Shown: one piece after another, positions 42,876 through 44,698 of the stretch
Layout: each line of letters begins with the position of its first letter
How positions within the stretch are numbered: position 1 is the first letter of the stretch
Assembly: GCA_963725885.1 (NCBI GenBank)
Contig: CAVSAH010000006.1
Coordinates: forward strand, 21,828-85,827
Direction: 5' to 3'
DNA from: an uncultured Chloroflexia bacterium
Lineage (GTDB): Bacteria > Chloroflexota > Limnocylindria > QHBO01
Length of the DNA stretch: 64,000 bases
Made by a program: the position numbers and the translations under genes
Notes under the pieces: generated by a model
Databases searched by the model: none
What the model was told of the DNA's origin: nothing
The model's input: the letters and a program-made list of their open reading frames with translations, nothing else

Positions 42876-42879
<4 letters not shown>

Positions 42880-44698
42880 TCGCTCGGCTCCAGGCGGCTG
42901 AAGTAGTCACGCACGAAGTCCTTCAGGGTGATCGGCACCTGCTGCCGATCGAGCGCTGTCTGCGCGTAGTCCCGGAACAGGTCGTAGACGGACCGATACG
43001 GGACGACGCTGTCGTTGTCGAACCCGGCTCCGCTGCCCGATCCCGACTGGTCGGTGCCGCCGTTCCCGCCCGATCCGGCGATGAAGTCGGGATCGCCAGG
43101 CCGACCGAAGCGGTCGAAGTCGACGAGGACGTCGGATTGGTCGTCGACCCCGAACCCCTGGTTGCCCTGGGTCGGGCCGTCGAAGCCACCGGTGCGCAGG
43201 CCGCCGCCGGGAATTCGACGCACCGTGGTCCCGCCGCCGCCGCCCGGCTGTGATCCGGGGTTGCTGCCCGGGTTCGAACCCGGGTTGCTGCCCGGGTTGC
43301 ATCCCGGGTTCGACCCGGGTTGCTGCCGGGATTGCTGCCGGGGTTGCTGCCCGGATTGACCGGATTGCCCGGGTTGGATCCAGGGCTCGCGCCCGGCTGG
43401 CCTGAGCCGCCGGGTTGGCCGGGGCTGCCGCAGGTGCGCCGATGCGCCGGCTGTCCCGACGCCCCCGGCTGTCCCGATGCCCCGGGCTGTCCCGAGGCGC
43501 CCGGCTGCCCCGAGGCACCTGGCTGGCCGGCTGTTGGTTGGCCGGCACGCGCCACCTGCCGTGCGCCGTCCTGGAGGGCCGACTGCGCCGCGGCGATGTC
43601 GCGCTGGAGCTGGCGATCGCGGGAGGCACCCGCGCAGGGCATCCGCGGCATCCCGCAGGGCGTCCTCGGCGGCCTGGCGATCCTCCTCGGCTGCCGGTCC
43701 GCGCGGCACGCTCGAGCGCGTCGGCGGCCTCAGCGAGGGCTCGCGCCGCCTCCGGGTGCGACGTCGCTCCCGACTGAGCCGCCTGCTGGAGGGCGGCGGC
43801 TCGTGCCTCCGCCTCCTGTGGGGTCATCGAGCCTGCCTCGTCGGCGAGCTCCTCGAGGTCCTCTGCCGCCTCCTCGGGGTCACCCTCGGGGTTCGCCTCG
43901 TCGTCGTCTGTCGCAGCCTGCGAAGCGGCCCTGGCGAGCTGAGTCAGGGCGGCATCGCGCTGCGTCGCCTCGGGATCGGCTCAGGCGCGCGAGCGCCTCC
44001 TGGACGGAGCCGATGCGGGCGAGGGTCGCCTCGCGGTCGGCTCCCTGCTCGCGCAGCTGCCGGGCGAGCTCACGCAGCTGCGCGCTCGAGCTCCTCTCGG
44101 CGGGGATCGGGAGACGTTCTCCTCGGCAAGCTCGTCGGCCACCTCGTCGATGCGATCGGCCACTCGCTCGGCGGCCTCACGTGCGGCAGCGCGCTGCCGA
44201 AGGATGTCGTCCTGCGGATTCGGCCAGGCAACCAGCAGCAGCGTCATCGCGAGGCCGACGCCGGCGATGGCCAGCGGCCGGCGAGCGAGCCGCGGTCGGA
44301 ACGCGCTGCGCGCGTCGACGCTGCCGAGCTGGGCCCGCGCGTCGGCCAGCTGTCGGGCCTCGAGCGGGATCGTCGCTCTCGCGCTCGGCGATCTCGAGCG
44401 CCGTCCCGAGCCGCTGGCGGAGCTCGAGCTCCTCGTCGGCGCGGCGGGCAGTCTCCACGAGCGAGGGCCGGCGTCGCGCCACGTCCGCGGCCCATCCCGC
44501 GACGCCGATTGCCACGATCGCCGCCTGGAGCCAGGTGGCGTGCTCGAACGGGAAGGCGCGGGCTGCGAGCTGCACGAGCGCCACCGCGACGAAGGTGATG
44601 GCCAGCGCGACCAGGGCCGAGCGCACCGCGCGGCGCCACCACAGACGCCGGCGCAGTGCACGGAGGCGCCGCAGCGCAGTCGGTTCCGAGGCGCGCAT
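42876..44698 (-). CDS. Membrane protein (about 600 aa) with three transmembrane helices, a long coiled-coil, tandem (GQPGAS)n and (SNPG)n low-complexity repeats, and a conserved C-terminal domain. It is ATGA-coupled to moxR.
   Basis: MRASEPTALRRLRALRRRLWWRRAVRSALVALAITFVAVALVQL..WLQAAIVAIGVAGWAA (ORF 44177..44698); ..LAIAGVGLAMTLLLVAWPNPQDDILRQRAAAREAAERVADRIDEVADELAEE (43981..44796); MTPQEAEARAAALQQAAQ.. (42907..43827); QPGASGQPGASGQPGASGQPGASG..SNPGSNPGSNPG (42923..43651); C-terminus [58 protein letters not shown] (42876..43709). The DNA shows 15-bp tandem repeats at about 43255-43380 and 43440-43540. Confidence 0.5.

Follow-up and report, generated by a model that had tools for sequence, protein, structure and literature searches.

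What is encoded between an ABC-2 permease gene and moxR on contig CAVSAH010000006.1 of an uncultured bacterium of the Limnocylindria (Chloroflexota), and is its reading frame disturbed by tandem repeats of its own? The window, as we call the whole stretch of DNA analysed here, is 64,000 nucleotides (nt) long and has a GC content of ~71%. Within it, the initial annotation had placed an intact gene at 42876–44698 for a membrane-bound coiled-coil protein with tandem repeats that might change in copy number and that were held to explain a local ambiguity of frame. We find that this gene (the target) is real, though it is not an intact open reading frame (ORF) in the present assembly. At a probability of a little over 70%, the locus is an orthologue of a widespread unnamed family and a fixed member of a MoxR module, and the gene is broken by eight insertions or deletions (indels) that are most likely sequencing or assembly errors, caused neither by the repeats nor by gene decay. 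The feature is ordinary in kind, being an orthologue of a hypothetical membrane protein that is common and has a low-complexity spacer, and indels have badly damaged it in the assembly. What the initial annotation observed is therefore partly confirmed, and what it made of the observation is partly supported.

On the minus strand, the list of ORFs contains no single frame that spans 42876–44698. It contains only overlapping fragments in three frames (42876–43709, 42923–43651, 43981–44796 and 44177–44698), and in a three-frame translation the protein-like sequence hops between frames. Plain tblastn failed to localise the frameshifts because every frame extends at 72% GC, and a custom frameshift-aware dynamic-programming alignment was used instead. 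With a hand-stitched target protein as query, we recovered intact orthologues of 574–621 amino acids (aa) at E values of 1e-144 to 1e-205, nearly all annotated as hypothetical proteins in metagenome-assembled genomes (MAGs) of Candidatus Limnocylindria/Chloroflexota. Four different guide proteins (the orthologues named for the gene in Table 1) led to the identical eight shifts. The target thus reads from an ATG at 44729 (MSDRTVGAAIDARLGTD...) to a TGA at 42876, with eight frame corrections, and the corrected protein of 615 aa maps back onto the DNA with 0 mismatches and no internal stops. The ATG at 44698, previously taken as the start, is in the wrong frame and is a spurious product of the first frameshift at ~44678. 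At the nucleotide level, the closest of 79 genome loci (L028) is 77.6% identical to the window.

Seven of the shifts in the target are +1-base insertions and one is a missing base. The inserted bases (T, C, T, G, A, C and G) do not fall in long homopolymers. The repeats do not account for the frame ambiguity, as had been proposed, since only one of the eight shifts falls within them and neighbouring genes are shifted as well. In homologue-guided alignments, moxR has 6 frameshifts, the BatA gene 3, the ABC-2 permease gene 1–2, and the DUF58 and DUF4350-like genes 1 each; the genes for an ABC ATPase and a histidine kinase have 0. Insertions make up 19 of the 21 shifts in the target plus the aligned neighbouring genes. 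The eighth shift of the target can be seen directly as an 11-nt step in a 12-nt array (spacing 12, 12, 12, 12, 11, 12, 12). Across the 64 kb, a crude codon-position hidden Markov model detected at least 31 stop-less frame switches on the same strand, which is an under-count given that it missed most of the shifts known from alignment. The ratio of nonsynonymous to synonymous substitution rates (dN/dS) amounts to 0.25 in the target and 0.22 in moxR relative to the orthologues of locus L002, compared with 0.21 and 0.26 for two unbroken genes, and the corrected moxR product is 85% identical to its L002 orthologue. We also compared 66 orthologous loci from species-representative genomes, found with the class-level alignment A2. 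None of the short-read assemblies among them carries a net frameshift, and the uncompensated frameshifts are all in 'MFD...contig_N' MAGs (L028, L051, L055, L060, L074, L079 and L080, with a maximum of 4). According to a passage of PMC12313526, the MFD MAGs were obtained by Nanopore sequencing of samples from Microflora Danica. Because the neighbours are shifted, dN/dS is unchanged, internal stops are absent and short-read orthologues have no net frameshift, the indels are most likely technical errors of a low-accuracy, probably long-read, metagenome assembly. At about one indel per 0.2–2 kb, ORF-based readings of the window (frame ambiguity, odd starts, truncated genes) are unreliable, and homologue-guided frame correction is needed before its ORFs are interpreted biologically. 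A frame plot of GC content at third codon positions shows stepwise rotation of the frame every 300–500 nt on the minus strand at 22200–24950, and the region 36200–40900 is likewise shifted.

Judged by profile matches, the target belongs to a large unnamed family of proteins of ~500–630 aa. A search of 1.84 billion cluster representatives (clusters defined at 50% identity) returned 2,755 clusters at E ≤1e-30 and 8,520 at ≤1e-10, and the best 150 family clusters matched end to end, with lengths of 464–727 aa, mostly 500–640. Across 69 sequences, P597, Y607 and F608 never vary, and conservation reaches at least 90% at P575, Y576 and Y583. After correction, the target carries R106, T109, Q126, D129, P597, Y607 and F608 in the invariant columns of alignment A4; without the corrections, the window contains no intact member of the family at this locus. 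Pfam and NCBIfam gave no significant family for the window protein and its homologues, and PADLOC gave no defence-system match for the target. The C-terminal domain had been likened to DUF4129-type tails. This resemblance was not borne out, as hmmscan found no match to DUF4129 at E ≤1 in the C-terminal 122 aa, in 10 homologues or in 62 family members. The locus resembles actinobacterial DUF4129-DUF4350-MoxR-DUF58 clusters, in which MoxR and DUF58 are also encoded together with a DUF4350-like protein and a membrane protein whose function is unknown. The target differs in its C-terminus, where a two-helix motif of 36 residues comes after a disordered segment.

Another candidate family was DUF4175 (PF13779). 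Members of DUF4175/TIGR02302 are long membrane proteins with two to three N-terminal transmembrane (TM) helices and Gln/Gly-rich low-complexity regions that are predicted to lie outside the membrane. The target is similar in having an N-terminal TM cluster followed by a long Gly/Gln-rich low-complexity region, whereas its family is 500–630 aa long and the DUF4175 profile has ~825 positions. The N-terminus of the window protein matches profile positions 4–131 weakly (9.8 bits versus a gathering threshold of 27.3, E 0.24), a DUF4175 match occurs in 1 of 62 family members (E 0.0012), DUF4175 is not one of the leading families at E ≤1 in the scan of these members, and TIGR02302 gave no match to the target. 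We rejected membership in DUF4175/TIGR02302 on these profile scores, with 61 of the 62 members lacking a match. The DUF4175 literature, on AdvA of A. baumannii, was uninformative for the target family. Weak matches to DUF4404 lie in the helical region of 10 of the 62 members of alignment A3 (best E 7.5e-6), and these may reflect a distant relationship for one helical hairpin.

The family is found in a conserved gene neighbourhood. In the window and in loci L001 and L002, the order is DUF4350-like (~800 aa), ABC ATPase, ABC-2 permease, target, MoxR, DUF58, BatA/VWA and VWA/GATase1-like. Pfam identifies AAA_3 (1.4e-44) and DUF58 (3.3e-31) in the window itself, and the BatA/VWA and VWA/GATase1_like genes are present in the syntenic orthologous loci, so that the target sits in a Bat-like MoxR-DUF58-VWA module. 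It had been argued that the proposal would fall if conserved homologues did not occur next to MoxR in other genomes. The proposal passes this check, since we find homologues directly upstream of MoxR in seven of eight independent contexts (L001, L002, L003, L005, L085, L086 and L087), and the core order is kept at 25–33% identity in L003 (without the ABC part), L005, L085, L086 and L087. The translational coupling to moxR proposed earlier is consistent with the gene junctions: ATGA overlaps at both ends of the target provide the arrangement expected for coupling to moxR and from the permease gene. A large membrane protein family that is missing from Pfam is shown here to accompany MoxR-DUF58-BatA modules as a fixed partner, both in Chloroflexota and in other lineages.

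Similar modules have been studied in other bacteria. A passage of PMC5700661 links Bat/cmd-type MoxR gene clusters, thought to be operons, to envelope integrity or aerotolerance and describes their mechanism as not known. Examples are the aerotolerance BatI operon of Bacteroides, RL3499-RL3502 (cmdA-D) of Rhizobium leguminosarum and bb0170-bb0176 of Borrelia, in which an MRP-type MoxR AAA+ protein is encoded with DUF58 and BatA/VWA proteins. Like them, the window module has an AAA_3 MoxR followed by DUF58, a VWA membrane protein with a BatA domain and a second large VWA protein. In contrast, the Bat/cmd operons carry BatC/D/E (TPR, BatD and SH3 proteins) and lack a three-TM helical-bundle protein, while the window module is extended upstream by the DUF4350-like protein and the ABC-2 transporter. 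Bat family models gave no match to the target. Few AAA+ systems that lack a known mechanism are as widespread as the MRP-type MoxR-DUF58-BatA modules, and the target family (at least 2,755 clusters, with a confident predicted fold and no relative in the PDB) is a candidate for a new family model and for work on interactions and topology.

We modelled the corrected window protein in AlphaFold2 together with 69 aligned sequences. The predicted template modelling score is 0.62, and residues 1–395 have a predicted local distance difference test score (pLDDT) above 90. By hydropathy and in the model, the three TM helices described in the initial annotation are recovered as hydrophobic helices, with TM2 borderline (hydropathy, KD, ~1.49 by hand computation in the window copy, just below the cut-off of 1.5). 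Three short helices are predicted within residues 90–136, in the conserved loop between TM2 and TM3. The region described as a long coiled-coil is instead modelled as a bundle of eight helices of 17–47 residues with pLDDT above 90. Residues 403–571 are predicted to be disordered; the first 100 of these ~170 residues are the Gly/Pro/Ser/Asn/Gln repeats. The two C-terminal helices (residues 576–593 and 598–611) have pLDDT values of 66–81. The conserved C-terminal sequence noted previously does end at 42876, and its motif is conserved across the 69 sequences. Foldseek searches of the PDB with two models gave no match better than E 0.2, and a sequence-profile search of the PDB gave only generic helical-bundle or designed coiled-coil matches. 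The N-terminal tail of 35 residues contains ten Arg/Lys and the region after TM3 is acidic, and because of this the positive-inside rule favours a topology with the N-terminus inside and the C-terminus outside, which we infer for the protein.

With this topology, the target protein is likely to serve the MoxR-DUF58-BatA module of the envelope as a scaffold or tether that is anchored in the membrane. The conserved TM2–TM3 loop would face the cytoplasmic MoxR and DUF58 proteins, and the bundle, spacer and C-terminal helices would share the outer face with the VWA and ABC-accessory proteins. In Borrelia, the BatA-type VWA domain of BB0173 has been placed experimentally on the outer face, according to a passage of PMC5700661. 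MoxR-VWA pairs elsewhere take part in complex maturation or metal insertion, according to passages of PMC13036017 and PMC9976466. For the suggestion that the target may be a scaffold or a substrate of MoxR, the observations that bear on it are gene adjacency and the ATGA overlap; the protein may also be an adaptor or a structural partner. A more ambitious model is possible but doubtful: the family would be an unrecognised core subunit of a widespread eight-gene envelope machine, in which an ABC-2 exporter and a GldG/DUF4350-like accessory protein would be joined to MoxR, DUF58, BatA and VWA/GATase1. The target would then be an adaptor that passes the work of the MoxR ATPase through the TM2–TM3 loop to extracytoplasmic VWA partners, with the spacer setting how far the C-terminus reaches into the cell wall.

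Several points weigh against the reading of a fixed module member damaged by technical errors. The technical origin of the indels is argued from assembled sequences. The shifts are also clustered: 14 of the ~21 fall in the 2.9 kb of the target and moxR (41838–44729), compared with ~7 in 9.3 kb of flanking operon genes, a density about five times higher that is unexplained. One of the eight contexts is an exception, as the full-length homologue of L004 in Planctomycetota (P0052, 9001–10503, 25% identity) does not adjoin MoxR. A topology with two TM helices and the C-terminus inside may apply instead, since TM2 is only marginally hydrophobic. Finally, the functional model is itself inferred, and MoxR is cytoplasmic, yet most of the target protein is predicted to be outside the membrane. 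The P0052 gene is preceded by those for a giant TPR protein and a DUF1581/DUF1583 protein.

Of the other explanations, the one that fares best, although it is improbable, is that emphasised in the initial annotation, in which the repeats are a slipped-strand contingency device whose copy number is tuned between strains to adjust linker length or expression. The peptide repeats QPGASGQPGASGQPGASGQPGASG and SNPGSNPGSNPG are present when the minus strand is read, and the DNA unit GCTGTCCCGAYGCCCC is found at 43450 and 43468, with variants at 43486 and 43504. The period is not 15 nt as had been stated, because the variants of this unit stand 18 nt apart. Tandem Repeats Finder and direct-repeat analysis give periods of 18 nt (43447–43525, 4.4 copies, 86% matches) and 12/24/36 nt (43242–43358, 76–87% matches). 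Nor are the repeats perfect: identity between copies is 64–86%, no exact repeated word exceeds 17 nt, and most differences between copies are synonymous changes at third codon positions.

The length of the linker does vary between relatives, as predicted, and by whole in-frame repeats. For example, it has 73 residues in P0001 and 59 in P0002, and 75 in P0006 and 91 in P0007. These close pairs, which are 94–95% identical in the N-terminal part and 95–100% in the C-terminal part, differ by 14–16 residues of whole repeats and have gaps nowhere outside the linker. Across species, the linker ranges from 180 to 420 nt (60 to 140 aa). A link between repeats and frameshifts also holds in part for other assemblies, since 6 of the 13 uncompensated shifts of the long-read MAGs fall in the linker, which makes up 13% of the protein length. 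While variation confined to the linker, its wide range and these shifts are what a contingency device would lead one to expect, slippage in units of 18 and 12 nt cannot switch the frame because both are multiples of 3. The imperfect copies, with 17 nt as the longest exact word, also speak against it, and the synonymous differences argue for old repeats under selection at the peptide level. In addition, neither period nor composition is kept across the family, where the only conserved traits of the linker are that it is Gly-rich and disordered, and neutral drift in spacer length fits better than an adaptive switch. We also tried the narrower category of a simple-sequence contingency (phase-variation) locus, which we define as a perfect repeat with a unit that is not a multiple of 3, or a homopolymer, such that slippage toggles the frame; with imperfect copies of 18 and 12 nt, the target was rejected.

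The glycine-rich repeats are thus an ordinary spacer of variable length, and we suggest that they form a length-tolerant, flexible segment that would evolve as units of 12 and 18 nt are gained and lost in frame. Manual inspection of the AHRRTCGS octapeptide within the repeats showed that no single indel gives a GQPG reading. Relative to P0001, compensating pairs of frameshifts occur in the linker of L063 (7253–7395), L066 (7322–7428), L022 (7385–7443) and L047 (7261–7473), of which L063 and L066 (two of the four) are short-read MAGs. These pairs suggest that part of the spacer is read in another frame in some lineages, i.e., that frame changes there are tolerated. Low-complexity or collagen-like spacers of variable length are known from bacterial surface proteins such as BclA of Bacillus anthracis. 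The target resembles these in that its in-frame tandem repeats vary in copy number between close relatives while the flanks are fixed, but its repeats, which mix units of 6 aa and 4 aa, are short and imperfect, and G-X-Y is not conserved in the family.

It is less probable still that the frameshifts are genuine, with the target and moxR being pseudogenes or phase-variable genes that are switched off. The concentration of shifts in these two genes is what would be expected if they were real. However, dN/dS matches that of intact neighbours and in-frame stops are absent after correction, and shifts are found all over the window, with most operon genes affected. Gene decay in bacteria is usually deletion-biased, and the 19:2 bias towards insertions is the opposite. 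The target shifts are not slippage switches, because seven of the eight lie outside any repeat, and uncompensated shifts in orthologues of the target are limited to long-read MAGs. Least probable of all is that the GQPGAS stretch forms a collagen-like (G-X-Y)n triple helix in a trimeric stalk such as that of BclA or Scl: nine uninterrupted G-X-Y triplets in the window protein and up to 15 in close relatives, a weak match to Pfam Collagen (PF01391, E 9.5e-4) and one partial orthologue called 'collagen-like protein' by NCBI are in its favour, but the run is short, the Pfam match reaches only 19.3 of the 27.2 bits required, the second half of the linker has a period of 4 rather than 3, and a triple helix cannot be the conserved function because triplets are scarce or absent in P0008 and P0011 of the same class (0–3) and in distant members (median 0, maximum 7 in 148 family representatives).

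Table 1. Positions in the window of the target gene, its frameshifts, the parts of its product and the neighbouring genes.
Feature	Position	Strand	Remarks
Unnamed three-TM membrane protein gene (target)	42876-44729	minus	Frameshift-aware alignment to intact orthologues P0001, P0003, P0004, P0006
ATGA, ABC-2 permease stop / target start	44726-44729	minus	Overlap; GAGGAAGAGG upstream
Frameshift 1	44678	minus	+1, extra T; generates the spurious ATG at 44698
Frameshift 2	44368	minus	+1, CCC for expected CC
Frameshifts 3 and 4	44081-44112	minus	+1 each at ~44112 and ~44081; PDPRREELER between
Frameshift 5	43981	minus	+1, extra A
Frameshifts 6 and 7	43631-43689	minus	+1 each at ~43689 and ~43631
Frameshift 8	43311-43313	minus	-1; GGTCGAA versus GGTTCGAA in sister units; sole shift within repeats
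TM1 (residues 36-57) and TM2 (64-85), hairpin	44474-44623	minus	Preceded by Arg-rich tail RLRALRRRLWWRR; hydropathy, charge; AlphaFold2 helices 16-58 and 64-85
Conserved TM2-TM3 loop, residues 86-148	44284-44473	minus	Near-invariant A94, D98, R106, T109, A110, Q126, D129; predicted cytoplasmic (alignments A1, A3, A4)
TM3, residues 149-167, then conserved WPNPQ	44227-44283	minus	Alignment, hydropathy, AlphaFold2
Acidic alpha-helical bundle, residues 171-392, eight helices	43547-44217	minus	AlphaFold2 pLDDT 92-98; net charge ~-25
18-nt imperfect tandem repeat	43448-43528	minus	(GQPGAS)4 + GQP = 9 G-X-Y triplets
AHRRTCGS octapeptide within repeats	43424-43447	minus	No counterpart in any homologue; unexplained
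12-nt imperfect tandem repeat	43242-43360	minus	~10 x (x-N/Q-P-G)
Conserved Gly-rich segment (RRIPGGGLRTGGFDGP...GFDND)	43011-43223	minus	Class-wide conservation; predicted disordered, pLDDT <50
C-terminal two-helix motif, residues 576-611	42891-42998	minus	Signature PY..V..Y...A...L....P...K..V+.YF..LEP
ATGA, target stop / moxR start	42876-42879	minus	Overlap
DUF4350-like gene, ~800 aa, first gene of the module	46783-49237	minus	1 frameshift
ABC ATPase gene	45812-46786	minus	Intact
ABC-2 permease gene	44726-45815	minus	1-2 frameshifts
moxR (AAA_3 + AAA_lid_2)	41838-42879	minus	Frameshifts at ~42396, 42275, 42226, 42210, 42091, 41934
DUF58 gene	40887-41781	minus	1 frameshift near start
BatA/VWA membrane protein gene	38920-40890	minus	3 frameshifts; domain content from orthologues

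Some further observations concern the orthologues and the surroundings of the module. Long ENA contigs are the source of the public database entries P0009, P0010, P0029, P0034, P0036–P0039 and P0044, which are frame-shifted translations themselves: their C-termini turn to junk in or close to the repeat region, and in P0036 the end of the upstream permease is joined to the protein. Six of the loci (L021, L048, L062, L065, L066 and L076) are binned as Binatia, Steroidobacteraceae, Zixiibacteriota or Angelobacter, while their orthologues share 60–80% identity with the Limnocylindria protein, and mis-binning of Limnocylindria contigs is probable here. Next to the module, a gene for a GAF-HisKA-HATPase_c histidine kinase (49334–51238, plus strand) is intact, divergent in orientation from the module and found in the same place in L001 and L002, which makes its product a candidate regulator of the operon.

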